From contig JAHLMT010000001.1 in the NCBI GenBank assembly GCA_018920185.1, positions 78,702-142,701 on the forward strand: 64,000 nucleotides of DNA, given 5' to 3'. Shown piece by piece: positions 35,232 to 59,135 of the stretch. The position numbers and the translations under genes were made by a program. The stretch is from Candidatus Aenigmatarchaeota archaeon. GTDB taxonomy: Archaea; Aenigmatarchaeota; Aenigmatarchaeia; CG10238-14; SCSR01. The notes under the pieces are model-generated. The model did not search any database and was not told the origin of the DNA. It worked only from the letters and a program-made list of their open reading frames with translations. Position 1 is the first letter of the stretch, and each line of letters begins with the position of its first letter.

Positions 35232-36467
35232 CTACTTTAATAAAGAGATAATCTTTTGTAGTGTTAGCTCTCTTTGTTCGCCAGTTTTCATATTTTTCAA
35301 TTTGAATTTATTCCTTTTGATCTCTTCAGGACCGATAATAATAACATAGGGTATATCCAAGTTGCTAGCATATTCCAACTGTTTACTAAAGTTCCTTTCC
35401 ATCAAATCCATTTGCGCGGATATACGGTTTTTTCTGAGCTCTTGAACTATTTTTATAGCGTTGTCAATCACTGAACTATTCACATTAGCAACAAAAACTT
35501 TTGTACCACTCTTTTCTTCTTTAAACATTTTATTTTCTTTCATCACCTCGAGAATTCTGTCTAAGCCAAGGGATATACCGGTTGCTGGTATATCTTGACC
35601 GCCAATCATTTTAATAAGATTATCATATCGTCCACCACCGCCGCAACTAACTTTAGTTCCTAAATTGATTTCAAAAACTATAGAAGTATAATACTCTAAT
35701 CCACGTACAAGCGAAATATCAAACTTCAATCTTTTTTCTATTCCAAAGGTTTTTGCCAAATTTAAAAATTTTTCTAGTTCGTTTTTACCTTCGTTATCTG
35801 GTGCGTCTTTTAGACTGCTGATTTTTAAAATCTCTAAAATTTTCTTCGAGTCTATTTTTTTCTGCTTGAGCTCTGCTTCAACTCCCTCCAGACCTATTTT
35901 TTCTAGCTTATCTATCGTTCGAAAAACTTCGAGCATTTCCTCCGTTTTCAGAAATTTTTCGAATTCTTCTTGAAGCAATTTTCTGTTATTAACGCGAATG
36001 TAATAATTTTCGAAACCTAATCTATCTAAAATTTCACAAGTAACGACCACACATTCTACATCAGCTAACAAAGAGCTACTACCAACAACATCTATATCAG
36101 CTTGCCAGAATTCTCTGAATCGTAGGAAAGCGGGATTATCATATCTCCACACTTTCTCTATCTGATATCTTTTGAACGGTTTCGACAATGAAATAGATGA
36201 AACAACTCTTGCTAATGGCATAGTTAAATCAAATCTCAATCCCAATTCACGATTAGACTTGTCTTTGAAATAATAAATTTCATCTTTAACTGCTTCTCCT
36301 AACCCACCTTTCGCTGACAATAGTTCAAAACTTTCAAATGCTGGAGTAATCAAAGGTTCAAATCCGTATTTTTCGAAGACATCCCTGCATACATCTATTA
36401 TCTGCTGTAGCTTTCTTGCATCACCAGGCAACAAATCTCTTGTACCTTTAGGAGGCTGGAATTTCAT
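35232..36467 (-). CDS. hisS: histidyl-tRNA synthetase
   Basis: N-terminal MKFQPPKGTRDLLPGDARK, and class II motifs with GGGRYD. Confidence 0.92.
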   Translation of the reverse strand: MKFQPPKGTRDLLPGDARKLQQIIDVCRDVFEKYGFEPLITPAFESFELLSAKGGLGEAVKDEIYYFKDKSNRELGLRFDLTMPLARVVSSISLSKPFKRYQIEKVWRYDNPAFLRFREFWQADIDVVGSSSLLADVECVVVTCEILDRLGFENYYIRVNNRKLLQEEFEKFLKTEEMLEVFRTIDKLEKIGLEGVEAELKQKKIDSKKILEILKISSLKDAPDNEGKNELEKFLNLAKTFGIEKRLKFDISLVRGLEYYTSIVFEINLGTKVSCGGGGRYDNLIKMIGGQDIPATGISLGLDRILEVMKENKMFKEEKSGTKVFVANVNSSVIDNAIKIVQELRKNRISAQMDLMERNFSKQLEYASNLDIPYVIIIGPEEIKRNKFKLKNMKTGEQRELTLQKIISLLK

Positions 36468-38228: not shown

Positions 38229-41222
38229 ATGATAAAAGAAGTTAAAGGTAATTACAATCCAAAGGAGCTCGAGCAAAGAATTATAGAATGGTGGGAATCG
38301 AATAAAATTCCAAATAAATTAACAAAATTGGATCCCAAGAAAAAGAAATTCTATCTTCTAGACGGGCCACCATATGTTAACAACATTCCTCATGTAGGTC
38401 ATATTAAAACAACTACATGCAAAGATATATGGTCTAAGTTCAAACTTATGCAAGGTTTCAGCTCATGGTTTCAACCAGGATTCGATACACATGGTTTACC
38501 AATAGAAAATATGGTAGAAAAAACACTAGGAATAACATCAAAGAAAGATATCGAAAAAATGGGTATTGATAAATTTATTGAGGCATGTAAAAAGTTTGCT
38601 ACTGGCAATGAAAAAATCTGGTTAGAGCTTTATAAAAAGTTGGGTGCATGGAGAGGATATGTAGAACCTTACATTACTTACCAGAATTATTACATTGAAT
38701 CAGGTTGGTGGACTGTTAAAAAACTTGCAGAAAAGGGGATGTTAGTCGAAGGAGAGAAGTCAACTTTCTGGTGCTCACATTGTCAAACAGCTTTGGCAGG
38801 TTATGAAGTTTCCGATAGTTACGCAGATGTAAAGGATCCTTACATATATGTGAAATTTCCAGTAAAAGGTAGAAAGAATGAGTATATAATTGCATTCACA
38901 ACTACACCATGGACCTTGATAAGTAATGTTGCTCTGGCCGTGCATCCTGAAGAATATTATGTAAGAGTGAAAGTTGGAAATGAAGTCTATATATTAGCTG
39001 AAAAAAGAGTGGAGCCTGTACTAAAAGATTTACTTAAAATCAAGTACGAAATCCTAGAAAAGTTTTTAGGAAAGGAGCTAGATGGTTTACAATATTTACC
39101 AATTTTAAAAGTACCTACTCAGGAAAAATTAACCAAAACCAATGCTCACAGAGTGATACTATCAATTCCTGTATTAAAATCTAAATCATACAAACATGGT
39201 TTATTAGAAAACATTAAAGAACTTAAAAAAGGGGAATTCTTCGATTTTGTTACAGTAGAGGAAGGTAGTGGAGTAGTACACACAGCTCCTGGCCACGGTC
39301 CCGAGGATCACTATATCGGAGAACATTACAAACTACCTATGGTTTCACCTATTGATGATGAAGGTAAATTTACAGAGGAGGCTGGTGAATTTAAAGGAAT
39401 ATTTGTTAAAGATGCTGATAAGCTTATAATAGAACGACTTCAGAAAAATAATTTACTTTTGCATTTCGGCTGGATAACACACTCCTACCCTTTATGCTGG
39501 AGATGTAAAACACCTCTGATTTACAGATTAAGTAAACAATGGTTCTTTACCATAGACTTGATTAAAGAACAGATGATAAAAGAAAACAAGAAAGTTAACT
39601 GGTTACCAAGTTTTGGTAAAGAGAGATTTCATAACTGGTTAGACGAGGCTGTTGATTGGTGCGTATCAAGACAAAGATATTGGGGAATTCCTTTACCAAT
39701 ATGGATCTGCAATAATTGTAGCAAAAAAGAAATAATTGGAAGTGTGGAAGAGTTGAAAACAAAATCGGCAACAAAATTACCGAAAGAAATAGATTTGCAC
39801 AAACATGTTGTTGATAAAATAGAGTTAATATGTGATAACTGTCACTCAAGAATGACCAGAGTACCAGATGTATTAGATGTCTGGTTTGATTCGGGTATAT
39901 CCACATGGGCATCTCTCGGATATCCTTATCGAAATAAAGAGATTTTTGAAAAATTATGGCCGGCTGATATGGTTTGTGAATCACAAGATCAGATAAGAGG
40001 ATGGTTTTATAGTTTGATGTTTTGTGGCGTGGCAACTTTCGGTTCCGCTCCTTATAATGGAGTTTCTTTAATGGGTTGGGTTGTAGATGAAAAAGGAGAA
40101 AAGATGAGCAAGTCTTTGGGTAATGTTATCTGGGCTGAGGATGCGTTAGAGAAATTAGGTGCGGACATACTTAGACTTTATTATTGTTGGGAAGTTGCGC
40201 CTTGGGAGGTTCAAAACTTTAGCTTCAAAACAGCAGAAGAAATTAGAAAAGCTTTGAACATTTTATGGAATTCTTATTCATTTTTTACAACATATGTTAC
40301 TCAAGATTTCAAACCGACTTTTAGAAATTTAAAAATAGAAGACAAATGGATACAATCGAAGCTACATTCCTTGATTAAGGATGTAACAAACTATTTAGAA
40401 AATTTTGAATTTCATAATGCTGGAAGAAAAATTATAGATTTTGTAGTTAATGATCTAAGCAGAACATATATTAAGTTAATTCGCGACAGAGTTTGGGTAA
40501 GTGAAACGGGCGAAAACAAACTTGCTGCATTATCCATGTTATACCAATGCTTGTTAACTGTATCAAAATTACTTGCTCCAATAACACCATTTTTATCAGA
40601 AGAAATTTATCAAAATTTAGAAGGTAAAGAAAAATCTGTTTTCATGACACAATGGCCTAATGTAAATGAAAAATTGATTGATAAAGAACTCGAACAACAG
40701 ATGGAAATAGCAAAAGAAATAATTGAAGCAAGCTTAGCCGCGAGACAATTGGCTGGAATTAAATTAAGGTGGCCTGTATCAGAAATTCTTGTTCAAACTG
40801 ACAATGAAAATGTTATAAAAGTTTTAGACAAATTAGACAGTATTTTACTATTTATGTGTAATGCTAAATCAATAGGCGTTGATAAAAATCCCTCAGGTAA
40901 AGAATTTTCCGAAGTTCAATTCAAGTACGGAAAAGTTTATGTTAATAGAACTCTTGATAAAGAATTATTAGAAGAAGCTTTAATCAAAGAACTAATACGA
41001 GAAGTTCAGAATCTAAGAAAGCAAAATAAGTTCAATGTAAAAGAAAAGATTATACTATCTATAAAAACAGAAAAGGAGATAGAAAAGACAGTAGAAAAAT
41101 ACACAGATACTATAAAGAAAGAAGTAGGTGCAACGAAAATTGTGTTTGGTGAACAAGGCAATTATAAAGGAAAATTAAATTTTGAAGATAGGATAATCGA
41201 ACTAAGCTTTGATAGAGTTTGA
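38229..41222 (+). CDS. ileS: isoleucyl-tRNA synthetase
   Basis: HIGH-type PPYVNNIPHVGH, WCVSRQRYWGIPLPIW (Ile/Val-type), KMSKSLGN, and the Zn motifs CNNC...CDNC. The length is 997 aa. Confidence 0.78.
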   Translation: MIKEVKGNYNPKELEQRIIEWWESNKIPNKLTKLDPKKKKFYLLDGPPYVNNIPHVGHIKTTTCKDIWSKFKLMQGFSSWFQPGFDTHGLPIENMVEKTLGITSKKDIEKMGIDKFIEACKKFATGNEKIWLELYKKLGAWRGYVEPYITYQNYYIESGWWTVKKLAEKGMLVEGEKSTFWCSHCQTALAGYEVSDSYADVKDPYIYVKFPVKGRKNEYIIAFTTTPWTLISNVALAVHPEEYYVRVKVGNEVYILAEKRVEPVLKDLLKIKYEILEKFLGKELDGLQYLPILKVPTQEKLTKTNAHRVILSIPVLKSKSYKHGLLENIKELKKGEFFDFVTVEEGSGVVHTAPGHGPEDHYIGEHYKLPMVSPIDDEGKFTEEAGEFKGIFVKDADKLIIERLQKNNLLLHFGWITHSYPLCWRCKTPLIYRLSKQWFFTIDLIKEQMIKENKKVNWLPSFGKERFHNWLDEAVDWCVSRQRYWGIPLPIWICNNCSKKEIIGSVEELKTKSATKLPKEIDLHKHVVDKIELICDNCHSRMTRVPDVLDVWFDSGISTWASLGYPYRNKEIFEKLWPADMVCESQDQIRGWFYSLMFCGVATFGSAPYNGVSLMGWVVDEKGEKMSKSLGNVIWAEDALEKLGADILRLYYCWEVAPWEVQNFSFKTAEEIRKALNILWNSYSFFTTYVTQDFKPTFRNLKIEDKWIQSKLHSLIKDVTNYLENFEFHNAGRKIIDFVVNDLSRTYIKLIRDRVWVSETGENKLAALSMLYQCLLTVSKLLAPITPFLSEEIYQNLEGKEKSVFMTQWPNVNEKLIDKELEQQMEIAKEIIEASLAARQLAGIKLRWPVSEILVQTDNENVIKVLDKLDSILLFMCNAKSIGVDKNPSGKEFSEVQFKYGKVYVNRTLDKELLEEALIKELIREVQNLRKQNKFNVKEKIILSIKTEKEIEKTVEKYTDTIKKEVGATKIVFGEQGNYKGKLNFEDRIIELSFDRV

Positions 41223-42749: not shown

Positions 42750-43994
42750 ATGCTCATCGAAATTTTATTTTTCTCCCTTATAGGTATTGTTGTGGGTATT
42801 CTTCTTGGGTTGCTTCCTGGCTTCCATTTAAATAATTTAGTTCCTCTAGTATTTTTACTATTACCTATTGTCACTTCACCTCATTATTTAGCTGTATTAA
42901 TAGTTTCAATAGCAATAGCACAAGTTTTCACAAGTTTTATTCCGTCGGTATATCTAGGAGCCCCCGACGGTGATAGCAATGCACTATCAATTTTACCAGG
43001 TCATAGACTTCTATTAGAAGGAAGAGGTTATGAAGCTATTCAACTGACAGTTGTCGGAGGATTTGGTGCATTGATATTAAGTATACTTTTTGTTTTATTT
43101 TTTGGAAATTATTTTGTTTCACTCTACAACATTATCCGACCTTACATTGCATATCCACTTATTGCTGTAGTGCTTTTCATGATATTTTCAGAAAAACAGA
43201 TTAAGAAAATCCTCTCAGCAAGTTTAGTTGTAATCCTCTCAGGAATTTTGGGTATACTCGTTCTTAATTCCTCAATAGTTTCGCAACAGAATGTACTATT
43301 TCCTACATTTGCAGGATTATTTTCTATAAGCATACTAATAACTTCAATAACAGAAAAAACAAAAATACCAAAACAGAAAATCGATAAAGAATTGAAAATA
43401 TCTAAGTTCAACATTATAAAATCTATGGTTCTTGGTGTAATTGCAGGAGTTCTTGTGGGATTGTTGCCGGCAGTTGGTGTATCTCAAGCAGCTACATTCA
43501 TGCAATATCTCGGCGGTTTAAACGAAGCCAGAACATTTCTTGTGACTCTTTCAGGCATAAACACAGCCAATGAAGTAATTTCTTTGAACTCACTTTACCT
43601 AATATCAAATCCTCGTTCTGGTGCTTCTGTAGCCATAGAAAGAATCTTATCTGAGATAAGCTTTGACGAAGTTCTGCTTTTTCTAGGCGTGATATTTCTC
43701 ACTTCAGGAATTGTAGTGCCTATTACACTATTTCTTGGTAGAACAATACCAAAATTTCTGGATAAAATAAATTATACAATTCTCTCGATTCTTGTAATAA
43801 TTTTCTTGGAGATTTTGATAGTTCTAATGACTGGGATATACGGTTTGTTAATCGGATTAACAGCTACTGGGATAGGTTTGTTATGTACTTATACAGGAGT
43901 TAGGAGAAGCAACTGTATGGGGATCTTGTTATTACCGAGTATTTTCTTTTTTACAGGGTTAAATCCATTAATTTTAACTTTATTAAACATTTAA
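42750..43994 (+). CDS. TctA-family (DUF112) polytopic membrane protein
   Basis: Duplicated GLLPG motifs (GILLGLLPGFHLNN..., GVLVGLLPAVGVSQAATFMQY) and more than 10 TM helices. Confidence 0.7.
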   Translation: MLIEILFFSLIGIVVGILLGLLPGFHLNNLVPLVFLLLPIVTSPHYLAVLIVSIAIAQVFTSFIPSVYLGAPDGDSNALSILPGHRLLLEGRGYEAIQLTVVGGFGALILSILFVLFFGNYFVSLYNIIRPYIAYPLIAVVLFMIFSEKQIKKILSASLVVILSGILGILVLNSSIVSQQNVLFPTFAGLFSISILITSITEKTKIPKQKIDKELKISKFNIIKSMVLGVIAGVLVGLLPAVGVSQAATFMQYLGGLNEARTFLVTLSGINTANEVISLNSLYLISNPRSGASVAIERILSEISFDEVLLFLGVIFLTSGIVVPITLFLGRTIPKFLDKINYTILSILVIIFLEILIVLMTGIYGLLIGLTATGIGLLCTYTGVRRSNCMGILLLPSIFFFTGLNPLILTLLNI

Positions 43995-43997
43995 AAG

Positions 43998-45779
43998 ATG
44001 GATATGAAAGATATAGATTCAAAAAAACTGAAAGAACTTTATTTAGAATTTTTCAAACAAAAAAATCATGTAGTCATTCCTAATGCTTCACTCATTCCAA
44101 AGGAAGATCCAACAGTTCTATTTACAACCGCTGGTATGCACCCAATTGTGAGATATTTGTTAGGTGAACCTCATCCTCTTGGAAAGAGATTGACAAATGT
44201 GCAGAAATGTCTCCGAACAGACGATATTGATTCAGTTGGTGATGACTCACATCTGACTTTTTTTGAAATGTTGGGAAATTGGTCACTTGGAGACTATTGG
44301 AAAGAGGAAGCAATTAAATGGAGTTGGGAATTTCTAACAGATGAAAAATGGCTCGGTATAGATAAGAACAAAATTTATATATCAGTTTTTGCTGGAGACG
44401 AAGATGCACCAAGAGATGAAGAAAGCGCAAGTATTTGGCGAAGTTTAGGAGTCCCAAGTGAAAGAATTTTCTATTTATCCAAAAAGGATAACTGGTGGGG
44501 TCCTGCCGGGGCTACCGGTCCGTGTGGCCCGGATACCGAGATGTTTTATGACACCGGAAAAGAACCACATGGCGAAGATTGTAGACCAGGAGATTCATGT
44601 GGAAAATATGTTGAGATATGGAATGATGTGTTTATGCAATATAACAAAACTGCAGATGGTAAATATGAATTACTGAAACAGAAGAATGTTGATACAGGAA
44701 TGGGTGTTGAAAGAACAGTCGCCATATTACAGAATAAAAAAAGTGTTTATGAAATTGAAACATTCAAACCAATAGTTGAAAAAATAAAAGAACTTGCGAA
44801 AATAAAATCACCAGATGAAAACCAAGAGAGATCTATAAGAATCATCACCGATCACATTAGAGCATCCACATTTGTTTTATCTGAAGAAATAGTTCCAAGT
44901 AATGTTGATAGGGGATATGTGCTACGCAGATTGATAAGACGTTCTATAAGGCATGGAAAACTGATAGGGATAGAAAAAGAATTCCTCGGTGATTTAGCCG
45001 AAATAGTTATCAACATATACAAAGACAGTTATCCGGAGCTAGAAAAAAAGAAAGAATTTATCCTAACTGAGTTGAAAAAAGAGGAAATAAAATTCAGAAA
45101 TACCCTTGAAAAAGGCTTGAAGAAATTCGAGGAACTTGCAAGACAAGTAAAAATAATTGACGGTAAGAGTGCATTCCTGTTGTTTCAGAGTTTTGGTTTT
45201 CCAATAGAAATGACAAAAGAACTTGCGAAAGAACTGAATATCGCTGTTGATGAAAAGGGGTTTGAGGAAGAATTTAAAAAACATCAACAAATTTCTCGAA
45301 TCGGTGCTGAGAAGAAGTTTAAAGGTGGACTAAGTGATGCTTCTGAACAAACAACAAAATTGCATACAGCAACGCATCTTTTGAATGAAGCAATACGCAG
45401 AGTTTTTAATAGGAAAGACATAGTGCAAAAAGGTTCGAATATCACGCCAGAAAGGTTACGATTTGATTTTAATTTTGAGAGAAAATTAACTGAAGACGAA
45501 ATAAAAGCTATAGAAAATCTTGTTAATGAACAGATTAAAAAAGGATTACCAGTAAGAAGAGAAATTATGACACTAGAGGAGGCTAAAAGATTGGGTGCAC
45601 AAGGTGTTTTTGAACACAAGTATGAAGAAAAGGTTTCTGTTTATATCATAGGCGATTTTTCGATTGAAATATGTGGTGGACCACACGTGAAAAATACAAA
45701 AGAAGTTGGTAGATTTAGAATAATAAAAGAAGAGGGTGTTGCAGCAGGCATAAGAAGAATAAAAGCAATTGTTGAGTAA
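43998..45779 (+). CDS. alaS: alanyl-tRNA synthetase, compact form (593 aa; catalytic + editing, no C-Ala domain)
   Basis: LFTTAGMHPIV, HLTFFEMLGNWSLGDYWK and WWGPAGATGPCGPDTEMFYD in the catalytic core. The editing-domain Zn motifs are HTATH and CGGPH. Confidence 0.85.
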   Translation: MDMKDIDSKKLKELYLEFFKQKNHVVIPNASLIPKEDPTVLFTTAGMHPIVRYLLGEPHPLGKRLTNVQKCLRTDDIDSVGDDSHLTFFEMLGNWSLGDYWKEEAIKWSWEFLTDEKWLGIDKNKIYISVFAGDEDAPRDEESASIWRSLGVPSERIFYLSKKDNWWGPAGATGPCGPDTEMFYDTGKEPHGEDCRPGDSCGKYVEIWNDVFMQYNKTADGKYELLKQKNVDTGMGVERTVAILQNKKSVYEIETFKPIVEKIKELAKIKSPDENQERSIRIITDHIRASTFVLSEEIVPSNVDRGYVLRRLIRRSIRHGKLIGIEKEFLGDLAEIVINIYKDSYPELEKKKEFILTELKKEEIKFRNTLEKGLKKFEELARQVKIIDGKSAFLLFQSFGFPIEMTKELAKELNIAVDEKGFEEEFKKHQQISRIGAEKKFKGGLSDASEQTTKLHTATHLLNEAIRRVFNRKDIVQKGSNITPERLRFDFNFERKLTEDEIKAIENLVNEQIKKGLPVRREIMTLEEAKRLGAQGVFEHKYEEKVSVYIIGDFSIEICGGPHVKNTKEVGRFRIIKEEGVAAGIRRIKAIVE

Positions 45780-45797: not shown

Positions 45798-46874
45798 TTA
45801 ACTACGGTAGAAAATTAAAAACTCAGATGACAAGTCGTGCTCTAATCTTTTCATGATTTCGGGTGGTAATCTAGCGACATCTGCAACGCCATCCCAATCA
45901 ACAAAACTACTTCTCACCCTCACTCCACTATCACCTGTTACTCTGTTCGGTATAAAAAGATCGGGTCCTATTCTGTGTGTAACGATTATACCTCTTTCAC
46001 CTTCTTTGACTTGTTCATTTATATTATCCTCTTTTCTGATTTCTATCACAACATAAGGAACAAAAGGAAAATAAGTTAAATCATCTCCATCACGTTCTTC
46101 TGTAATTTGCATCGAAGCCCCATTCATATAATCTCCGTACCACCCTCCAAATTTTCTATTCTTATAAATGTTATGTTTAAACATTCTTAACATATCCCGG
46201 GTCATACCAACACCACCAAACAATATAGCCTGTAAATACAGCGATTGTGACTCGTTAAGTCTCTCGCCGGTCATTAGAAGTAATGGAGCTATATCTTCAT
46301 ATACACCTACTTGATTATTTTGAAAATGTTCGATAAGTCTATCAACAATAGGTGAAAAAAACTTTATCATATCTTCTCTATTTTTACTAGACGCTATTTG
46401 TTTTGCAGTTCTAGCATCAACTTCTACACCATGGAACTTTCCACCAAACCTCGAAGCCAATTCATTCAAAAACATTTTTAATACATCATTATCAGTGACG
46501 GTACCTAACCAGTATTGGTTTTTTGGGAATCCCCTTATGGATAAAGCCCACGCTGAAAAATTTGCCATTTGTTTAACAATATCCTCACCCCAATAAACAG
46601 TTTTAGGGTTCCCTGTAGTTCCTGAAGAGGTACTTCTCACCAGTACACCTCTGTAGTTGCGTGGAATTAGTTCACATGGGTCCAAATTACGTAAAAAGTC
46701 ATCAGTAACATATGGTAGTCTTCTTAAATCTCTTAACGAAGTTATACTATTGGGGTTTAAGCCAGTCTTTTCTGTGTATCTTGACCAAAATGGTGTTTGC
46801 TCAAAATGAGCTTTAACTATTCTTCCTACATGCTCGTCTAAATCAATACTTTCATTAAAATACGGTACTAACAT
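45798..46874 (-). CDS. PaaK/coenzyme F390 synthetase-family adenylate-forming enzyme (divergent member)
   Basis: AMP-binding P-loop TSSGTTGNPKTVYW and 358 aa. It is divergent from the transglutaminase-PaaK-V4R genes. Confidence 0.65.
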   Translation of the reverse strand: MLVPYFNESIDLDEHVGRIVKAHFEQTPFWSRYTEKTGLNPNSITSLRDLRRLPYVTDDFLRNLDPCELIPRNYRGVLVRSTSSGTTGNPKTVYWGEDIVKQMANFSAWALSIRGFPKNQYWLGTVTDNDVLKMFLNELASRFGGKFHGVEVDARTAKQIASSKNREDMIKFFSPIVDRLIEHFQNNQVGVYEDIAPLLLMTGERLNESQSLYLQAILFGGVGMTRDMLRMFKHNIYKNRKFGGWYGDYMNGASMQITEERDGDDLTYFPFVPYVVIEIRKEDNINEQVKEGERGIIVTHRIGPDLFIPNRVTGDSGVRVRSSFVDWDGVADVARLPPEIMKRLEHDLSSEFLIFYRS

Positions 46875-46912
46875 CTTTACTATTTTTAAAATTTAAATAT
46901 AAAAATAAATAT

Positions 46913-47503
46913 ATGAGCCCGGCAGAAAATATGTCAGAATACTTAAAGCCTTCTACTTATTGTAAGTCCGATGATCCTGAAATAAAGCAACTTGCTTTAA
47001 AGATAACCAGAAATAAAAAAAACGATAAAGAAAAGGCAAAAGCTCTTTTTGAATGGGTAAGAGATAAAATAGAATACAGAATAACAAAAATCGTTGGTGC
47101 AAAAAAAATTTTAAAAAGAAATCCAAAATATGGTTCATCTTTCGATAAAACAAATTTGTTAATAGCCTTATGTAGGTCAATAGGTATACCAGCTCGTTAC
47201 GTTTTACTAAATTGTGATATAAAAGTTAAAAAGCCAAATGTACCAACAAGAGCTTTACATTATGTAGCAGAAATATTTGTTAATAATCGATGGGTTATTG
47301 CTGATCCCACATTTTCCAAATCAATTTCTTCCGTTGTGGACATCAGCGAATGGGGGAAACCTACTTGGAGCAGAGTTTATAAAATTGAAAAAACCGCTAG
47401 TCTTTCAAAATTTAAAATAATGTTAATGAACTTTATTATGCCTTTTATTCCATCAGTAAAGAAAATATATAAAGCAATTGAAGAATCGCGGGTGAGCCGA
47501 TGA
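46913..47503 (+). CDS. transglutaminase-like cysteine protease superfamily protein
   Basis: A Cys-His-Asp core: NLLIALCRSIGIPARYV, HYVAEIF, WVIADPT. Confidence 0.75.
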   Translation: MSPAENMSEYLKPSTYCKSDDPEIKQLALKITRNKKNDKEKAKALFEWVRDKIEYRITKIVGAKKILKRNPKYGSSFDKTNLLIALCRSIGIPARYVLLNCDIKVKKPNVPTRALHYVAEIFVNNRWVIADPTFSKSISSVVDISEWGKPTWSRVYKIEKTASLSKFKIMLMNFIMPFIPSVKKIYKAIEESRVSR

Positions 47504-48894
47504 AAAAATATTGGAATCCTGAAATAGAAACTGATAGAGAGACGTTGAATAGAATAATTAAAAGAAGATTATCGTATACTGTTAGATACGCTTATAATTT
47601 TTCACCTTTTTATAGAGAATTGTTCGATAAACTCGGGGTAAAACCTGAAGACATCAGAGAACCCAAAGACTTATTAGAAAAGTTACCTATCATAACTCGT
47701 GAAGATATAATTAATGCTCAACCACCCCTTTCAAATTCTTTCAAATTTTTTTCTGCACCACCCGGGTACGGGTTTACACGACCTTATACATCGGGCACCT
47801 CCGGCTCCCCTAAGATAACAAGACGAACTTTTGATGATTGGGACTCTTCTAGAGAACGTTGCGCACGTGGTTATACTATGGTTGGAATTCTCCCAACTGA
47901 TGTTGTTTTAGATATGTTACCATTTGGTATAAATGTTTCTGGACTCGCATCTTTATTTGGATTCTACCGAACTGTAGGAGCTGAGGTAATTACACTAGGT
48001 GTTTCATTGTACCCCAAAAAAACTGATATATTTTCAATACATAGACCTACTGTTATCTTTGGTATGGCATCCTATGTTGATAGACTTGCGAGAGAATTAA
48101 AGTTAGGTGGTTTAGATACAGAGAAATTAGGTATTAGAACAATTCTAGTTGTAGGAGAACCCTCTACTAAAGAAAAAAGAGATAGAATTTCTGAAGCTTT
48201 TGGTGGAGCTAAGGTTTATGATTGGTATGCGAGTGATGAAGGTGATGTAATGGCCGTGCAATGTAAACCTAATATCGGCAGCGGTAATGAGAACGATTTG
48301 GGAATGCATGTAAACGAAGACAGAATTTTAATGTTTGTAATAAATAAGAAAACTCGATCAGAAGAGGCAAAAGGTAACGTTGGGATAGACGTTATAACAA
48401 CGCTACTCGATGAAGGAGAATATAGTGGTATGGTCTTATTAAACTACTCACACGGTGATCAATTTGCTATTATATCAACTGATACGTGTGAATATTGTGG
48501 AAGATGTTTGAAAAGAATTTCTCATCCTACACGAGAAAGAGATGAAATACTGATTGGACCAGCAAAGTTACCCTTATCAGATGTTGAAGCTGCTATTAAT
48601 TCATCTGAAAGCAGAAAATATTTAACAGGGGAATACGAAATTGTCTACCATTTCGATGAAATAGATAGGTTATATAAAGTAACAATTAGAGTAGATACTC
48701 TAGGAAGCGTAGAACATAATTTTAAACAAAGAATAGCTAATCAAATAAGGGATAAAATTTTCGCGGCAAATTATCCAATTTCAGTAGTTACACAACAATC
48801 TCAGATAGGTGAACTAAATATAGAAGTAGTTGATGAGGGTTCGTTAGAAGTTTATAAATCTCCAGGTAAACCGAGGAGAATTATTAAGGTATAA
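47500..48894 (+). CDS. phenylacetate-CoA ligase (PaaK)-family adenylate-forming enzyme
   Basis: N-terminal KKYWNPEIET, the P-loop YTSGTSGSPKIT, and the C-terminal CEYCGRCLKRISH region typical of PaaK/F390 synthetases. It has an ATGA overlap with the upstream gene. Confidence 0.85.
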   Translation: MKKYWNPEIETDRETLNRIIKRRLSYTVRYAYNFSPFYRELFDKLGVKPEDIREPKDLLEKLPIITREDIINAQPPLSNSFKFFSAPPGYGFTRPYTSGTSGSPKITRRTFDDWDSSRERCARGYTMVGILPTDVVLDMLPFGINVSGLASLFGFYRTVGAEVITLGVSLYPKKTDIFSIHRPTVIFGMASYVDRLARELKLGGLDTEKLGIRTILVVGEPSTKEKRDRISEAFGGAKVYDWYASDEGDVMAVQCKPNIGSGNENDLGMHVNEDRILMFVINKKTRSEEAKGNVGIDVITTLLDEGEYSGMVLLNYSHGDQFAIISTDTCEYCGRCLKRISHPTRERDEILIGPAKLPLSDVEAAINSSESRKYLTGEYEIVYHFDEIDRLYKVTIRVDTLGSVEHNFKQRIANQIRDKIFAANYPISVVTQQSQIGELNIEVVDEGSLEVYKSPGKPRRIIKV

Positions 48895-48915
48895 GATTAA
48901 AAATAATCAATTAGA

Positions 48916-49467
48916 ATGCTAAGCAGAAACTTTTTAATTGAATTATTAGAAACAGGACAACTAAGAGTAGACGAAAATGGTCATTTAATCTTGTTTAATG
49001 AATTTGGAATTTTAACGCCCTCTGGAGTAGTTGTTAAACTTAGAGAATTGTTAGAAAGACAATTTGGGGAAAAAGTAGCAGACAAAATTCTTATGAAATT
49101 AGGAGAATATCAAGTAGAAGCTGCAGCAAAACGTTATATTAAAATACTGGGTATACATAGATTAGATAAAAATAAGATAATTCAATTCACAGAAAAAATT
49201 CTTAATGTTCTAGGATGGGGTAAAATTTTAGTTCAACCATTTCATGATAGTATAGTTACAGTTATTATGAAGGAAAGTGCATTAGGAATAAGATATAGAA
49301 AAATGTATAAAAAGAATAGTAAACGACCGATTGATTTTTGGGTTGCAGGCATGTTAAAAAAACACTTTTCAGTTATTTTTGAAACAGAGGTTAAAGTGAA
49401 AGAAACCAAATGTATGGCTATGGGGCATCCTTATTGTGAATTTTTGATAAAGAAGGTTAAACCTTAA
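48916..49467 (+). CDS. V4R-domain protein (predicted small-molecule/hydrocarbon-binding, COG1719-like)
   Basis: The C-terminal V4R signature KCMAMGHPYCEF, and 183 aa. Confidence 0.65.
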   Translation: MLSRNFLIELLETGQLRVDENGHLILFNEFGILTPSGVVVKLRELLERQFGEKVADKILMKLGEYQVEAAAKRYIKILGIHRLDKNKIIQFTEKILNVLGWGKILVQPFHDSIVTVIMKESALGIRYRKMYKKNSKRPIDFWVAGMLKKHFSVIFETEVKVKETKCMAMGHPYCEFLIKKVKP

Positions 49468-50191: not shown

Positions 50192-50650
50192 CTATTTACG
50201 CTTCTTTTTTAATTTGGTTTCAATCTCAACCAATTCTTTAAATAAATCAGAATAGGCAGATTTCAGATCATCTTCACCAATTTCCTTTGCATAAAACTTT
50301 TTCTTGAACTCTTTAATCATCGATCTAATTTCTCGACGTCTTTTTGTAAGGATAGCAGTTTCCAGAGCTTTTGTGTAGAATAAATGTAAAATACTAGCTA
50401 AAATTAAAAGTGCTCCTAGAGAAAGTAAACCTAAAACAAAATGGGGCTCAACTTCTGCAACCAAAATTCGAATCAAGTAGGATATACCAATAAAATCTAA
50501 TCCCAAAGCCATTAGAAAGATGCTAAGTGAAATCCGCTTAAAAGCTTCTTGTGCGAAATAAAAAATCACATAAGGTGCTGTTATAAACACAAAAAAGTTG
50601 ATGAAGTTTACTAAATTCGATATTATAAGCTGAATTTCAGGATTGACCAT
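50192..50650 (-). CDS. small membrane protein, hypothetical
   Basis: A 152 aa ORF with 3-4 predicted TM helices and a charged C-terminal helix. Confidence 0.45.
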   Translation of the reverse strand: MVNPEIQLIISNLVNFINFFVFITAPYVIFYFAQEAFKRISLSIFLMALGLDFIGISYLIRILVAEVEPHFVLGLLSLGALLILASILHLFYTKALETAILTKRRREIRSMIKEFKKKFYAKEIGEDDLKSAYSDLFKELVEIETKLKKKRK

Positions 50651-52472: not shown

Positions 52473-55127
52473 TTATTCTAAATAAATTGCAGGTTTACCA
52501 TATTTAGCTCTTGAGGCTTTACCTTCAGGATCGTATTTCTCTTTATCCGAAGCTTTGTATAGCTCTATTTTTTTAAAAGAAAATGTTTTCTGCAAATATT
52601 GTAAAGATTCCTTGAAGTAATTCAATTCCTTATCTGTCACAAAATATAAATAAGCATTTTTCTTTTCTCCTGCTAACTTCAAAACTTGATTTAGGTCTTC
52701 TTGAGTTTTTTTGAAAATATTTTCTAGTTCTAAAACATCTCTATTAATTTTCTTCTCATCAAATGTAGGCCAGGGGCCTAAGGAAATGAAATTTTTGTTG
52801 CCCAATCTCGACCACAACTCTTCAGCAATATGTGGCGTGAAGGGCGTAACCAACTTTAATGCTGTGGATATACCTTCTTTCAGAATAGTTCTATTACAAT
52901 TTCTAATACCACCACATCTTTCAATGTAATGTTCCAATTCATTTAAAAGTTGAAATACACTATATTGGATTCCTGATCTGAACTTCATTAATTCGTAATT
53001 TTCTGTGGCTTCTTTGATACAATTTTGTAATATAGTTTCCATATATTTGTCTAAATTATTTGGCGAATTTCTTTTAGCTTTCCTCCAGTTTTTAACAAGT
53101 AGCTCTAAAAATTCAAGTCGAGAAGAAAATGCTTTTAAGGAATCTTCTCTCCAATCTGCATCGTCCATATTTTCATTTGCTGCAGCAATATTAATTCTTA
53201 CTAAATCAGCACCATATTTCTGAATCAAATCTTTCAATGGTATAATATTACCACGAGATTTAGCCATTTTTTCGCCCCCAACTTTTACGAAGCCATTAAC
53301 ACCATAAGCTTTAGGCCAATACTTCTGATCATCCCAGATTGCGACATGATGAAAAAGTGCGTAAGTTAGATGGTTTTGGATTAAATCTTTACCAGAATTC
53401 CTTAAATCAAATGGATAGAAATATTCAAATTCCTCTCTCATTTCTTTTATTAGATCCTCATTTAATTTCGATTTTTTACTAATTTCTTTTGAATTACCTT
53501 TGCCCAAGAACACATAGTCAAAAATCTCATCAGTTAATTTTTCAGCAGGTATTTCATTTTCATTGATAACTCTTGCTATTGTATAATATGCCATATAAAT
53601 TACAGAATCGCTTAAAGTTTCGACTATCCATTCTTTATCCCACGGTAACTTTGTACCCAATCCACTTTTTCTTGCACACGCTTTATCATCCAACCAATCA
53701 ACAGTGTTGAGGAATTGTATCCTAGCTTCTTCAGGATAGAATTTCATTTGTTGGATGCACTGCTTTACCTTTTCTTTCCATCCTTTGTCAGAAAATTTCA
53801 AGAACCACTGATTTTCTAAAATTTTAACATGACATCTGTGTGTGCAGCGGCATATAACAGGATTACTAGCTTCCCACATCTTGTCTGCAATATTTTGATT
53901 AACGAAATCTTCTATCAATGCATTCTTAACTTCTGAAACTTTTTTACCAGCATACTTTCCACAAATTTCTCTAAGAATTCCTGTATGGTACTCTTTTTTG
54001 TAAACTATAGATGTTGCCTCCTCTAATTTCTCAGTTTCTTTCGTAGATTTTATTCCCATTTTTTCAGAAACCTCAACCGCAGGACATTCACCAAAACCTT
54101 CGACTTTTATTACAGAAATCGGCTGAATTTTCTCACCTAGTTCTTTCAAAGCCACATAGTCATAAGGCGCATGTGCAGGTACTGACATTACTATTCCTGT
54201 AGCTGTTGCCGGATCTACAAACTCACCTGGAAGTATAGGAACAGATTTATTAGTAACAAGATTTGTAACTGATTTGTTGATTAATTCTTTGCTAGAAATT
54301 CCGCCTAAAATCTCAACGTCTCTTAACTGATCTTTAAATTTTTCTATAGTTTCTTGAGTAACAATCCAGACTTCATTTTTAATTTTTACTTTTACATGGT
54401 TTGCTTTAGGATTAATCCAGAGATTTGTTACACCATAAATTGTTTCTGGTCTTAATGTCGCACATGGTAAGATTTCACCTGAATCGAGTTTGAACTTCAA
54501 TAAAACAAATTCAATCGGGCTTTCTCCTTCACCTTTCAATCTGTCGTGATCGCCTGTAGGCGATTGATCATGTGGACACCAAATTACAGGATGGGTTCCT
54601 TGAGTGACATAGCCTTTCTTTCTTAATGTATTGTACTGCCATTCAATGAAACGATTATAAGTTGGTGTGATAGCAGTAACAAAAGTCCTTCTCCAATCGA
54701 TAGAATAGCCGATAGATTTAAAATCTTCGATAAAACCTTTCATCCAAAATCTTGCAACTGTCTCAGCACCACCACTAACGAATTCTTTCAAATCTTTATC
54801 AGTAGCCCCATATAACTTAAACGTTTCGATCTGTGTCTTGTCACCTTGCTTTAATCTTTCTACAGTTCCCAGTATAGGTTCACCGGTTGCATGAAAACCT
54901 TGTGGAAATAAAACATTGAATCCCTGCATTCTTTTAAATCTTGCGTAAACATCACCGCGGGTAAAAGTAAAACCAGCACCTATATGTGGCCTGCCATTTA
55001 GGTAAGGATAAGGAATTGTGATAAAGAATTTTTTCTTTTTTGGATTTACATTAGCTTCGAAGATTTTTGCTTTAGCCCATTTGGTCTGCCATTTTCGTTC
55101 TATTTTTTTAAAATCCATAAAAAACAC
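52473..55127 (-). CDS. leuS: leucyl-tRNA synthetase (archaeal type)
   Basis: N-terminal MDFKKIERKWQTKW, HIGH-type PYPYLNGRPHIGAG, KMAKSRGN, and a CP1 editing domain. The true start is probably the MDFKK Met, about 55118. Confidence 0.9.
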   Translation of the reverse strand: MFFMDFKKIERKWQTKWAKAKIFEANVNPKKKKFFITIPYPYLNGRPHIGAGFTFTRGDVYARFKRMQGFNVLFPQGFHATGEPILGTVERLKQGDKTQIETFKLYGATDKDLKEFVSGGAETVARFWMKGFIEDFKSIGYSIDWRRTFVTAITPTYNRFIEWQYNTLRKKGYVTQGTHPVIWCPHDQSPTGDHDRLKGEGESPIEFVLLKFKLDSGEILPCATLRPETIYGVTNLWINPKANHVKVKIKNEVWIVTQETIEKFKDQLRDVEILGGISSKELINKSVTNLVTNKSVPILPGEFVDPATATGIVMSVPAHAPYDYVALKELGEKIQPISVIKVEGFGECPAVEVSEKMGIKSTKETEKLEEATSIVYKKEYHTGILREICGKYAGKKVSEVKNALIEDFVNQNIADKMWEASNPVICRCTHRCHVKILENQWFLKFSDKGWKEKVKQCIQQMKFYPEEARIQFLNTVDWLDDKACARKSGLGTKLPWDKEWIVETLSDSVIYMAYYTIARVINENEIPAEKLTDEIFDYVFLGKGNSKEISKKSKLNEDLIKEMREEFEYFYPFDLRNSGKDLIQNHLTYALFHHVAIWDDQKYWPKAYGVNGFVKVGGEKMAKSRGNIIPLKDLIQKYGADLVRINIAAANENMDDADWREDSLKAFSSRLEFLELLVKNWRKAKRNSPNNLDKYMETILQNCIKEATENYELMKFRSGIQYSVFQLLNELEHYIERCGGIRNCNRTILKEGISTALKLVTPFTPHIAEELWSRLGNKNFISLGPWPTFDEKKINRDVLELENIFKKTQEDLNQVLKLAGEKKNAYLYFVTDKELNYFKESLQYLQKTFSFKKIELYKASDKEKYDPEGKASRAKYGKPAIYLE

Positions 55128-56590: not shown

Positions 56591-56713
56591 GCCCCTATAG
56601 CTCAGTTTGGATAGAGCAACGCACATAAAGGTTGAACCTTCTATCTATCTGAAAAGAAGGATTGATAAAAGGATGAAAGGCGGAGGTCGTGGGTTCAAAT
56701 CCCACTGGGGGCA
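56591..56713 (+). tRNA. intron-containing tRNA (123 nt precursor), isotype unresolved
   Basis: An acceptor stem GCCCCTA/TGGGGGC with discriminator A, D-arm GCTC-AGTTTGGATA-GAGC, variable loop AGGTC, and T-arm GTGGG-TTCAAAT-CCCAC. About 49 extra nt lie in the anticodon region, including the hairpin CCTTCT...AGAAGG. The mature anticodon stem could not be reconstructed unambiguously. Confidence 0.6.
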
Positions 56714-56749: not shown

Positions 56750-57508
56750 ATGACCAGAATTATTAGTATAGCATCTGGTAAAGGTGGTGTTGGTAAGACA
56801 ACATTAGTTTCTAACTTGTCCCATGTTTTAACAGAATTAGGTAAAGATGTTACAGTTATTGATGCAAATTTAACTACACCTCATCTTGGTTTGCATCTAG
56901 GATTTCATATGGTTCCTAAATCTTTACATGATTTTTTGAGAGGTGATGCAAAATTAAAAGATATAATTTATTATCACCCATATGGTTTCAAAGTAATACC
57001 AGCGGGATTGTCTGTAAATGAGTTAATTGGAGTTGATGCAAACAAACTACAAAATCTTACATTAAATCTCCTAGGTAAAACAGATTTTATCTTGCTTGAC
57101 TCAGCACCCTCTTTAGGCAAAGAAGCAACTTTGTCATTAAAAATCTCGGATGAGATACTTTTACTAACAAATCCAAATATACCTGCTGTACTTGATATCT
57201 TGAAAGTTGCTAAAATTGCAGAAAATTTAAACAAGGTCATTCTTGGCATAGTTGTTAATCGGGTTAATAGAAAAGAAAACGAATTATCTTTAAAAGAAAT
57301 AGAAGATCTTGTTAAATATCCTGTAATTAGTGAAATACCAGAAGACATCAACGTGCAGAAATCATTAACTGCTAGAAGGGCATTGGTTGATTATAATCCT
57401 GAATCTCCTGCTGCAATAGAAATGAGGAAGTTGGGATATTTTCTTGTTGGTAAAGAATTCAATTACAAGCAGAGTTTTTTAAAAAGATTATTTAGTTGGT
57501 TTAAATAG
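56750..57508 (+). CDS. minD: MinD/ParA-family P-loop ATPase
   Basis: Deviant Walker A ASGKGGVGKTT, LDSAPS, and 252 aa. Confidence 0.85.
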   Translation: MTRIISIASGKGGVGKTTLVSNLSHVLTELGKDVTVIDANLTTPHLGLHLGFHMVPKSLHDFLRGDAKLKDIIYYHPYGFKVIPAGLSVNELIGVDANKLQNLTLNLLGKTDFILLDSAPSLGKEATLSLKISDEILLLTNPNIPAVLDILKVAKIAENLNKVILGIVVNRVNRKENELSLKEIEDLVKYPVISEIPEDINVQKSLTARRALVDYNPESPAAIEMRKLGYFLVGKEFNYKQSFLKRLFSWFK

Positions 57509-59135
57509 CATCTAAACTAATTTCGAAAGCAGCGCAAGGCATTTCTAAATTCCATTGCTCAAGAACAACCGGAGAAATTTCACCCAATATTCCTATTGAC
57601 TTGTTATTCACGACTATACTTGCTTGTCTACCTTCGATGAATGTTTCACTAGAATTTTCTTTAAACGAGTATATGACACCCATTTGCTTCAATAAAGATT
57701 CAACCACCCCCTTAACTTCAGCATAACTACTTTTTGAATGTGAAATTACACATGCAACTTTTCTTATAGTTTTTGACATGGTTTCTTCATCATTATCAGG
57801 AACAACAACATCACCAACTTCGAAAATATTCTGTGGATATTCAACATGCTTATTAGCAGAGAGAACTTCCATTAAGCTTGGTAATAGCCAATTTCTCAAA
57901 CATATGTACTCTGATGAAACTGGATTCTCTAATTCAATCACAGCTTCACTCTTAATGTTCATCTTATCGAATAAATTCTTATGATTGGTTAATATAGGTC
58001 TAATAATTTCTTGAAAACCGAATCCGACTAGCAGTTGTCTTACTTTGTTTGACAGTTTTTCTATGGGATGAACCTTTCCTATAGTAGCTACGCTTGGTAA
58101 ATGAGGAATAAAATTATTGAATCCGTATCCAATTGCAACATCTTCAATCAAATCAACCTTATGCAAAATGTCAGTTCTATAAGCTGGAATAAAAACTTTT
58201 AACATACCTTTATTTTCAATTACATCATAACCCATTCTGTTAAGCGCATCTATTATATCACTTTTTTTCAGATCCAGACCAATTAATTTATTTGTTTCAT
58301 CAATTCCCAAATCTATAAAGGTGGGATTAAGATTGGGTACAACTTCAGATTTTTCACCATAAAATATTTTTGTAGCCTCTATTATACAACCGCGTTCAGC
58401 AAAATTAGTTACAATTATATTCAGAGTTTGTAGGACAGCTTCTTTATCAGTTCCGGTTAATTCGACAAAAAGATTCTTAGTTTTTTCTGTTACACGAGTT
58501 CTTTCTGAATTTATTATCGGAGGAAAGCTGAAAATTCCTTTTGCATCGATCCACGCAGGTAGCTTTTTCAGTCCAGATAAAATATGACCATATTCCTTGC
58601 CTTTAGGAATTTTTTCTAGAACTTCGGCTAAAGTTATTTCTTCATTTGTATCTAATGGAACAATTTTTTCATCAGAACTTACTTCGGTGTATACGATATT
58701 TGGTATAATCTTGTCAAAATCGTGAATGCCAATTGCAACCTTCTCCCTCTTCCTACCTATAGTATCAGTCAAAACATCTTGTATGTTCATTAAACTTCTG
58801 ATAAAACTATCTGTTATTGACACATTTCTAATAACTGAAGCAGCGAGATATGGCCTATAAGGGAGATAAGAAGCTTTAATATGCAATTGAGGACTGTTAA
58901 CAGTAAACTTTTTCAAACCTTTCTGTAATCCTAAATATTGTTTGATAGCTCGTGATAAGCCTTCTATACCAAATAAATCTGGTCTATCTGGTGTTAACTC
59001 TACAGTTATCTCGGTCTCAGTTTTACTTTCAACATTTGTTTTCATCAAATGGATAATTTCTTCTAACTGTTCATCGGAAAGCCTTTTTCCAATCAAGTTT
59101 AACAAATCTTTTTTATCATAAGTAATTGTTGGCAT
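57501..59135 (-). CDS. pheT: phenylalanyl-tRNA synthetase beta subunit (archaeal)
   Basis: [17 protein letters not shown] and [19 protein letters not shown]. The start was trimmed to the ATG overlapping the pheS stop (ATG/TAA overlap at 59133-59137). Confidence 0.88.

Follow-up and report, generated by a model that had tools for sequence, protein, structure and literature searches.

A conserved archaeal gene module pairing an EhpF-type half-ligase with a relative of coenzyme F390 synthetase

Introduction

A stretch of 64,000 nucleotides from a “Candidatus Aenigmatarchaeota” archaeon (GenBank assembly GCA_018920185.1, contig JAHLMT010000001.1, positions 78,702 to 142,701 of the forward strand; referred to here as the window) carries a compact set of genes for two adenylating enzymes of the ANL superfamily (LigA and LigB), a transglutaminase-like protein (TG), a stand-alone V4R domain protein (V4R), and a KaiC-like ATPase (KaiC). 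Each component comes from a known superfamily. The new element is the combination of an EhpF-type half-ligase with a full ligase related to F390 synthetase, accompanied by TG, V4R, and KaiC in DPANN archaea or by a different protein, U240, in halophiles.

The closest described counterpart of LigA is EhpF, which is found together with EhpG in the D-alanylgriseoluteic acid pathway of Pantoea agglomerans. Bera et al. in 2010 reportedly found that EhpF activates phenazine-dicarboxylate and proposed that the aryl carboxylate is reduced to the aldehyde. EhpF is described as an atypical ANL enzyme without the C-terminal domain in a title from the reference list of PMC3175449. Its partner EhpG is listed as an aldehyde dehydrogenase in a Proteus gene table in PMC11278526; EhpG was also considered as a potential LigB-like ligase, and this was rejected because that table and the annotated records both identify it as an aldehyde dehydrogenase.

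The described enzymes closest to LigB are FtsA, the F390 synthetase of Methanothermobacter (TIGR03335), and the phenylacetate-CoA ligase PaaK. The PaaK-like ligases NatL2, AjiA1, and ClxA are said to complete ester or amide formation without coenzyme A (CoA). According to the titles of their PDB entries, these three enzymes bind or adenylate aryl acids. V4R domains are known from the phenol sensors MopR, PoxR, and DmpR and, in a stand-alone form, from MJ1460 and BchJ. Operons that combine an amidoligase with a transglutaminase-like peptidase (ATP-grasp/COG1305 operons) were reportedly predicted by Iyer et al. in 2009. F390 synthetase itself adenylylates or guanylylates the 8-OH of coenzyme F420 and thereby converts F420 to a redox-inactive form (PMC3087415).

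Gene content and conservation of the module

The module and the gene next to it consist of the following features, in window coordinates.

45798..46874, minus strand: LigA, EhpF-like ANL adenylating enzyme, 358 residues, without the C-terminal domain
46875..46912: divergent intergenic spacer between LigA and TG, 38 bp, AT-rich, from a reading of the sequence
46913..47503, plus strand: TG, transglutaminase-core (papain-like fold) protein, 196 residues, PF01841
47500..48894, plus strand: LigB, two-domain ANL ligase of the PaaK/F390-synthetase family, 464 residues
48916..49467, plus strand: stand-alone V4R protein, 183 residues, PF02830
49457..50170, minus strand: single-domain KaiC-like (RecA-superfamily) ATPase, 237 residues, PF06745
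50192..50650, minus strand: predicted membrane protein, 152 residues, no family match

The first four open reading frames (ORFs) had been proposed in an earlier reading of the bare nucleotide sequence (the sequence-only reading), and they are present with exactly the coordinates given there. The encoded proteins show 100% identity to database entries from a “Candidatus Aenigmatarchaeota” metagenome-assembled genome. All the motifs quoted in it are in place: SSGTTGNPK in LigA (residues 83 to 91), YTSGTSGSPK (96 to 105) and CEYCGRC (330 to 336) in LigB, and KCMAMGHPYCEF in V4R (165 to 176). The family assignments are borne out by matches to PF01841 (Transglut_core, E = 1e-19), PF00501 (AMP-binding), and PF02830 (V4R, E = 2e-13). 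The extent of the cluster was recognized in part: its four genes belong to it, whereas a fifth conserved gene just outside the interval, coding for the KaiC-like ATPase, had been missed.

For comparison, the neighborhoods of LigB and LigA homologs were fetched and annotated against the reference copies, and all ORFs were clustered, giving 12 non-redundant loci. Pattern scans based on the LigA profile account for one locus from genome contigs and three from metagenome contigs; this census is small and biased to the GWYGDYM and VYEDIAP motifs. P0088, from Halobacterium zhouii, lies outside the neighborhood comparison. The gene orders are given below, with strands in parentheses and changes of strand marked by semicolons.

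Window: LigA (-); TG LigB V4R (+); KaiC (-)
L015: mirror image of the window, likewise beside the gene for alanyl-tRNA synthetase (AlaRS)
L016: TG (-); LigA LigB V4R (+); KaiC (-)
L002: LigA (+); TG (-); LigB V4R (+); KaiC (-)
L004: V4R LigB (+); LigA (-); TG (+)
L017: LigA (-); LigB V4R (+); KaiC (-)
L001: LigB V4R (+); one ORF; KaiC (-)
L010, a low-GC brine contig: U240 (+); TG (-); LigA LigB V4R (+); KaiC (-)
L011: TG (-); LigA LigB
L005 and L007, higher-GC brine contigs: U240 LigA LigB
L009, from the haloarchaeon Saliphagus: FilR1-type regulator, LigB, U240, LigA

LigA and LigB are found together in all 11 informative loci and form the invariant core of the module. V4R adjoins LigB on the same strand in each of the 8 DPANN-type loci, TG adjoins LigA in 7 loci, always on the opposite strand, and in 6 of 6 loci the KaiC-like gene runs toward V4R and in most cases overlaps the 3' end of V4R (in L001, one ORF lies between the two). 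Orthologs share 26 to 62% identity with the window proteins and the GC content of the loci ranges from 0.33 to 0.58, indicating that the loci represent different lineages. No further family recurs across the loci in the clustering of all ORFs. In L002 and L004, the LigA slot is occupied by a different EhpF-like subtype (26 to 28% identity to LigA of the window), and the LigBs of these loci are 40 to 51% identical to that of the window. The module thus seems to require some EhpF-like enzyme without being tied to a single lineage of them.

The association extends to searches started from the other side. In a search of 5.8 billion clusters, all four non-self homologs of V4R (P0240 to P0243) lie on contigs size-matched to those of LigB homologs (P0004 and P0007 to P0009). 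In the control neighborhoods, the FtsA-clade genes of Methanothermobacter, Methanoculleus, and a metagenome-assembled genome of Thermoproteota have none of the module genes as neighbors.

Adjacency of unrelated genes by chance would be one explanation of such a cluster in a compact genome, and it agrees with the gene density, the unrelated housekeeping flanks, and the location of LigA on the opposite strand. However, nine independent low-GC loci unite the same five families, arranged in at least four orders and orientations, and the LigA-LigB pair persists in high-GC haloarchaeal contigs, so that this explanation is effectively refuted and retains almost no probability. The sequence-only reading regarded these genes as one functional unit, to be abandoned if no related genome kept them together; the set is kept across Aenigmatarchaeota-like, low-GC brine, and haloarchaeal contigs.

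Two other origins were considered for the module as a whole. A mobile element or plasmid was rejected: the GC content is flat at about 33% over the window, the flanking genes are housekeeping genes, and the module is found on no plasmid. A role in anti-phage defense was rejected as well, as the only PADLOC hit is mad8, matched weakly by the P-loop of the KaiC-like protein (E = 2e-4).

LigA

Judging from sequence profiles and the predicted structure, LigA is an EhpF-type ANL enzyme that lacks the whole C-terminal domain. The sequence-only reading had labeled it a divergent PaaK; the comparisons place it as an EhpF-type half-enzyme and not as a PaaK paralog. In hmmsearch comparisons, a profile built from LigA plus its four nearest homologs matches EhpF (PDB 3L2K/3HGU) over residues 7 to 331 with an E value of 7e-26, at about 21 to 23% identity, whereas its best match to PaaK (E = 9e-11) covers only the N-terminal ~100 residues. 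LigA has no match in Pfam; its residues 14 to 117 match PaaK/F390 models of NCBIfam with E values of about 1e-9, and the rest of the protein lies outside those matches. The structural comparison gives the same order. With the AlphaFold (AF2) model of LigA (predicted local distance difference test score, pLDDT, of 84) as the query, EhpF is the top Foldseek match with template modeling (TM) scores of 0.79 to 0.82, and the N-terminal domains of PaaK follow at 0.56 to 0.62 (target-normalized).

LigA and EhpF, of 358 and 366 residues, match end to end. The shared architecture includes an ANL N-terminal domain with the PaaK-type N-terminal region, the P-loop, and the A7 aspartate. In LigA these correspond to the P-loop SSGTTGNPK, a GWYGDYMNG region equivalent to A5, and Asp315 of A7; beyond the GD of A7 (residue 315) there is only one strand region and a terminal helix, and the ANL C-terminal domain with its A10 Lys region is absent. 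Gly85, Lys91, and Asp315 are invariant in an alignment of 17 diverse relatives. Because these P-loop and A7 residues are kept, LigA looks like a working adenylation half-enzyme.

LigA also resembles EhpF in always being encoded beside a specific partner enzyme. The partners differ: for EhpF it is an aldehyde dehydrogenase, whereas for LigA it is a second, complete ANL ligase together with TG, V4R, and KaiC-like proteins. No EhpG-like aldehyde dehydrogenase is encoded next to LigA among the ORFs scanned around the module (about 25 to 64 kb of the window) or in any of the module loci.

An exhaustive profile search at E ≤ 1e-10 finds 127 cluster representatives of the LigA family, nearly all of 320 to 380 residues. 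In annotated bacterial and haloarchaeal replicons, NCBI calls the relatives “arylcarboxylate reductase” or “phenazine antibiotic biosynthesis protein,” and in three annotated records (Halalkalicoccus, Burkholderia, and Proteus) EhpF-like genes adjoin a gene for an EhpG-type aldehyde dehydrogenase. A few distant EhpF-like members are fused to aldehyde dehydrogenase, class-III aminotransferase, Zn-dependent alcohol dehydrogenase, alpha/beta-hydrolase, or SCP2 domains, which fits a family that passes an activated acyl group to a partner.

On plasmid p1 of Streptomyces angustmyceticus (L020, 3832 to 10053), an EhpF-like gene annotated as “arylcarboxylate reductase” lies inside a futalosine-pathway menaquinone cluster with mqnC, mqnE, and 1,4-dihydroxy-6-naphthoate synthase; this context hints that the branch activates a naphthoate carboxylate. 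In Saliphagus sp. JCM 18423 (L009, 9881 to 10962), the LigA homolog is split over two overlapping frames (9881 to 10936 and 10669 to 10962), which suggests a frameshift, a pseudogene, or a sequencing error.

LigB

LigB is annotated by NCBI only as an “AMP-binding protein.” Its best hidden Markov model (HMM) match is TIGR03335 (F390_ftsA), which covers residues 4 to 462 with 249.1 bits and falls short of the equivalog cutoff of 458.7 bits. The PaaK equivalog models are missed as well, with 101 bits versus 646 for TIGR02155 and 126 bits versus 700 for NF041878. LigB scores 41 bits against PF00501 (cutoff, 29.9) and matches PaaK structures with E values of 2e-27 to 1e-20. The nearest relatives outside its own clade are methanogen FtsA proteins, at about 32 to 36% identity (about 35% for Methanothermobacter FtsA). 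In a quick neighbor-joining tree without support values, the LigBs of the module sit beside the FtsA clade and apart from PaaK, so that the LigB clade appears as the sister group of the methanogen coenzyme F390 synthetases. The label “canonical PaaK-like” used in the sequence-only reading therefore has to be replaced, given the HMM scores (249 versus 101 to 126 bits) and the tree. The CEYCGRC motif, which had been singled out there as a C-terminal feature, is the ordinary CxCGR motif that precedes the A8 hinge in PaaK-family enzymes and is also found in PaaK and FtsA.

All the elements of a complete ANL enzyme are present in the two domains of LigB: A3 (YTSGTSGSPK), A5 (YASDE), A7 (HGD), CxCGR, the A8 hinge (RERDE), and A10 with its Lys (GKPRRI). 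FtsA shares with LigB a similar length and the CxCGR motif before A8. However, the FtsA-clade signature residues are not found in LigB at any of the four positions compared, as listed below.

A3: ETSGTSG (ETSGTSGxPK) in the FtsA clade, [YC]TSGTxG in LigB and orthologs
Motif after A3: SYGMNVGA in the FtsA clade, PxGxNxSG in LigB and orthologs
A7: T-E-D in the FtsA clade, x-G-D in LigB and orthologs
A10 catalytic-lysine position: Arg (G-R-PKR) in the FtsA clade, Lys (GK-PxRI; in PaaK, GK-AxRV) in LigB and orthologs

The most conspicuous of these differences is Arg in FtsA versus Lys in LigB at the A10 position. The predicted catalytic signature of LigB is that of a carboxylate-adenylating ligase, and since the motifs separate the two clades and LigB carries the canonical carboxylate-adenylating residues, the name “F390 synthetase” should not be used for it. 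With PaaK, NatL2, AjiA1, and ClxA, LigB shares the fold of the ANL subfamily and the canonical motifs, including the A10 Lys, but it scores far below the PaaK equivalog cutoffs and has no paa or benzoxazole gene context.

The relationship to FtsA raises the question of F390-like nucleotide signaling, in which LigB would transfer AMP or GMP to a hydroxyl group on a cofactor such as a deazaflavin or flavin, with the modified cofactor either signaling redox stress or being inactive. The product would then be detected or sequestered by V4R, signal transduction would fall to the KaiC-like ATPase, and TG (U240 in halophiles) would reverse the modification. The best full-length HMM of LigB, the sister position of its clade, and the inactivation of F420 by F390 synthetase are all consistent with this scheme. 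V4R domains act as sensors in MopR and PoxR, and V4R of the module has a weak NCBIfam match to MsvR, a redox-responsive regulator of the V4R type. KaiC-like ATPases have been proposed as archaeal signaling hubs, according to a title cited in PMC5847659. On the other hand, the score of LigB is far below the TIGR03335 cutoff, and the whole FtsA signature (ETSGTSG, SYGMNVGA, the A7 E-D, and the A10 Arg) is replaced by canonical carboxylate-adenylating versions. Genuine ftsA genes have no V4R, KaiC, or EhpF-like partners, the LigB host is a DPANN archaeon and not an F420-rich methanogen, and the scan of ORFs around the module (about 25 to 64 kb of the window) shows no F420-related gene. The scheme also leaves the invariant EhpF-type carboxylate activator unexplained, and it is considered unlikely.

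The similarity to PaaK could instead indicate catabolism or CoA activation of aryl acids, with LigB as a phenylacetate- or arylacetate-CoA ligase of the type that archaea employ together with 2-oxoacid oxidoreductases, LigA as its degenerate paralog, and the other proteins as bystanders. The matches of LigB to PaaK structures and to PaaK models of NCBIfam, as well as its NCBI name, are compatible with such a function, but the PaaK equivalog cutoffs are missed by a factor of at least 5, and neither the related loci nor the stretch of the window that was scanned (about 25 to 64 kb) contains paa, IOR, or ACD genes. Moreover, the supposed bystanders are kept through rearrangements, and LigA is clearly constrained, with its catalytic residues intact. 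A role in aryl-CoA metabolism is accordingly given very little weight.

In the public annotation (P0001), the LigB ORF is 424 residues long and begins ~40 codons past the ATG overlapping the TG stop codon (window 47500 to 47619). Homologs of LigB and PaaK structures align from residue 3 to 5 of the longer protein, so that the deposited start is probably wrong and the deposited protein too short.

V4R protein

V4R scores 50.4 bits against PF02830 (cutoff, 31). Its similarity to the sensor domains of phenol-responsive regulators spans more than the C-terminal part matched by Pfam: residues 15 to 181 of the V4R profile align with residues 26 to 194 of the MopR sensor domain (PDB 5KBE) with an E value of 3e-4. 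The AF2 model is of moderate quality (pLDDT of 74), with the N-terminal 33 residues poorly modeled. Foldseek searches with this model return PoxR, MopR, and DmpR at the top (TM score of about 0.66; E = 3e-9), followed by palmitate-carrying Bet3/TRAPP, H-NOX, and MJ1460. HMM score and whole-domain similarity both place the protein in the V4R/MopR-PoxR fold.

The zinc ligands of MopR, Cys155, Glu178, Cys181, and Cys189, map onto Asp140, Glu163, Cys166, and Cys174 of V4R, which share the E-x2-C-x7-C pattern. Glu163, Cys166, and Cys174 are invariant in seven orthologs (E..C.A.G...C), whereas the residue at position 140 varies, with Asp in V4R of the window and Cys in the L004 and L016 proteins. 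These four residues form a probable zinc site. In contrast to MopR, PoxR, and DmpR, V4R has no AAA+ or HTH output domain, and the first zinc ligand of the window protein is Asp. From its domain content and model, V4R is predicted to be a stand-alone ligand-binding module, comparable in this respect to MJ1460 and BchJ.

Transglutaminase-like protein

TG matches PF01841 with 71.2 bits (cutoff, 23) over all 108 model positions and has no signal peptide. In the sequence-only reading, it was credited with a Cys-His-Asp triad. The triad of the window protein is Ser76-His116-Asp131: in the alignment, Ser76 (codon TCT, 47138 to 47140) takes the place of the nucleophilic Cys of PDB 3ISR, and its codon is one transversion away from TGT. 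Cys occupies this position in six of the seven TG orthologs (those of L002, L004, L010, L011, L015, and L016), and His116 and Asp131 are invariant.

An N-terminal region with the pattern P-S-x-Y-C-x-S-D is common to TG and 3ISR. As in the ATP-grasp/COG1305 operons, an ATP-dependent ligase is encoded beside a small transglutaminase-core protein of the COG1305 type. Unlike in those operons, the ligases of the module are of the ANL type, and there are no alpha-E or circularly permuted ATP-grasp partners.

The presence of TG could mean that the module modifies proteins. The ligases would then activate a small acid or the carboxylate of a protein or peptide, and TG would attach it to, or remove it from, a Lys or Cys of a target, possibly V4R. 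This would agree with the transglutaminase core being a protein cross-linking and isopeptidase fold, with the similarity of the V4R model to covalently palmitoylated Bet3/TRAPP subunits, and with the invariance of the V4R cysteines. These cysteines, however, sit at the zinc-ligand positions of MopR and are thus probably structural. Small molecules are the substrates of the characterized ANL enzymes in the PaaK and EhpF branches, the TG and V4R genes are absent from the haloarchaeal version of the module, and TG of the window has no Cys nucleophile. A protein-modifying function of the module is therefore considered improbable.

KaiC-like ATPase and proteins specific to some loci

The KaiC-like gene converges on V4R and overlaps its 3' end by 11 nucleotides. 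The protein has a Walker A motif (GQTGTGKT) and passes the cutoff of PF06745 with 189 bits; its score against TIGR03880 (166.7 bits) is below the cutoff of 249.45.

The 152-residue membrane protein encoded next to it (50192..50650) is 31% identical over 73 residues (E = 2e-9) to a 154-residue ORF that is found only in L001, between V4R and KaiC, and it possibly belongs with the module.

U240, a family of ~240 residues, is found only in the halophile versions of the module (L005, 341 to 1063; L007, 609 to 1385; L009, ~9226 to 9951; L010, 2 to 514) and has no copy in the window. Neither Pfam nor the PDB contains a match to it. GNQD is invariant in the family, a GD motif is present in all three members whose sequence extends over its position, and a His follows downstream; our guess is that U240 might be a degenerate metallophosphoesterase of the calcineurin-like type.

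Possible function of the module

The identities of the genes, the intact catalytic motifs, and the conserved and specific association of the genes are direct observations. From these we infer what kind of substrate is used, how the steps follow one another, which proteins make contact, and what TG, V4R, and KaiC contribute. Our preferred hypothesis, held tentatively and with somewhat less than even confidence, is that the module uses ATP to activate one or more carboxylates on an aromatic or heteroaromatic, hydrophobic acid and then joins them to a nucleophile, as part of the tailoring or salvage of a small, cofactor-like molecule. Our confidence in any one step of this scheme is much lower. 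Activation and transfer of an aryl or acyl carboxylate was also the suggestion of the sequence-only reading, and it is still the best reading in view of the full-length homology of LigA to EhpF, the intact carboxylate-adenylating motifs of LigB, and the similarity of V4R to zinc-containing phenol sensors. Transfer onto a protein target is possible.

V4R would bind the aromatic ligand in a MopR-like pocket and present it to LigB or receive it from LigB. As its gene always lies beside LigB in the same direction, a hand-over between the two proteins, with V4R as a carrier or presenter, is plausible. LigB, as a complete ANL enzyme with the A10 Lys, would adenylate a carboxylate and complete the second half-reaction to a thioester, ester, or amide. 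LigA would make a second acyl-adenylate, by analogy with EhpF. Without the C-terminal domain, LigA would be unable to process its own product, so that a partner nucleophile would have to capture the acyl-adenylate. In classical EhpF systems, the aldehyde dehydrogenase probably accepts it on its catalytic Cys. Candidates for this role in the module would be LigB or the product of LigB, the sole universal partner, and, in DPANN archaea, TG, which normally has a Cys nucleophile and always flanks LigA; an acyl-enzyme formed on TG could be transferred to an amine or hydrolyzed. The KaiC-like ATPase might regulate the module or couple it to the state of the cell.

A bolder version of this scheme treats the module as a split ligase, in which the EhpF-type half-ANL enzyme and the F390-synthetase-related full ANL enzyme form an obligate pair and, in DPANN archaea, TG captures the acyl-adenylate as an acyl-enzyme and transfers the acyl group to an amine, giving an amide or isopeptide in an ATP-driven way that does without CoA. 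The product would be an aromatic cofactor-like or signaling metabolite, made or salvaged by the module, held by V4R, and linked to KaiC. As a complete picture, this version has a low probability.

Several observations weigh against the preferred hypothesis. In the Saliphagus locus, TG, V4R, and KaiC are absent within the 10-kb flanks, so that these three proteins are not essential to the core chemistry. TG of this genome, with Ser in place of the nucleophilic Cys, may be slow, altered, or inactive. The residues of MopR that contact phenol are apparently not kept in V4R, although the alignment behind this comparison is weak. LigB of L015 (338 to 1729), the locus most similar to the window, has Leu at the A10 Lys position (PGLLKEL) and a divergent A8 region, and may be a degenerate copy. 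Finally, the genes flanking the module in the window are translation and housekeeping genes that provide no metabolic hint.

Expression signals and genomic surroundings

The ATGA overlap of the TG stop codon and the LigB start codon, pointed out in the sequence-only reading, is real (47500 to 47503), and LigB is predicted to be translationally coupled to the upstream TG gene through it. Together with the 21-nucleotide gap between LigB and V4R, this overlap points to co-transcription of TG, LigB, and V4R. The 38-bp spacer between LigA and TG probably holds back-to-back archaeal promoters, with the TATA-like elements TTTTTAAAA and TTTAAATA, which would probably give leaderless or near-leaderless mRNAs. 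Matching divergent spacers of 33 to 77 bp in L004, L015, and L016 are likewise AT-rich and contain TATA-like boxes.

The part of the window from 25310 to 63853 is dense in translation genes, with seven aminoacyl-tRNA synthetase (aaRS) genes in about 27 kb around the module.

25310-27043: aIF5B/IF-2
35232-36467: histidyl-tRNA synthetase
38229-41222: isoleucyl-tRNA synthetase
43998-45779: AlaRS
52473-55127: leucyl-tRNA synthetase
57501-60394: phenylalanyl-tRNA synthetase, beta and alpha
60995-62086: Trp/Tyr-type aaRS
62624-63853: aIF2-gamma

Only AlaRS is common to these neighbors and a related locus (L015). It is short (593 residues) and matches PRK01584 end to end, with a catalytic core and an SAD editing-type domain, and is ~300 residues below the standard archaeal AlaRS models. 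A 123-nucleotide tRNA match in Rfam (56591 to 56713) is not reported by ARAGORN and presumably represents an intron-containing archaeal tRNA. Two genes upstream of the module (42750 to 43994), there is a gene for a TctA-family membrane subunit of a tricarboxylate transporter; TctB and TctC are not recognized near it, and TctA is not kept beside the module in other loci. A protein of 604 residues encoded at 33409 to 35223 combines PIN, T2SSE-type ATPase, and KH domains.

Implications

The sequence-only reading did not recognize the cluster as a named pathway, and no paper describing it was found in the full-text literature. No full text was found that combines F390 synthetase with V4R, hydrocarbon-binding protein, transglutaminase, or DPANN, although a mention in the supplements of comparative genomics studies is possible.

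Biosynthetic genes are scarce in the very small genomes of DPANN archaea. The five-gene set is retained in the small-genome Aenigmatarchaeota-like lineages and shared with halophilic archaea, and the module is therefore likely to be important to its hosts. It provides a concrete set of partners for three poorly understood groups: the EhpF-type half-ANL enzymes, the stand-alone V4R proteins, and the archaeal single-domain KaiC-like ATPases. For genome annotation, the name “coenzyme F390 synthetase” should not be carried over to the LigB clade. If TG does intercept the acyl-adenylate, the module would represent a new route to amide bonds.

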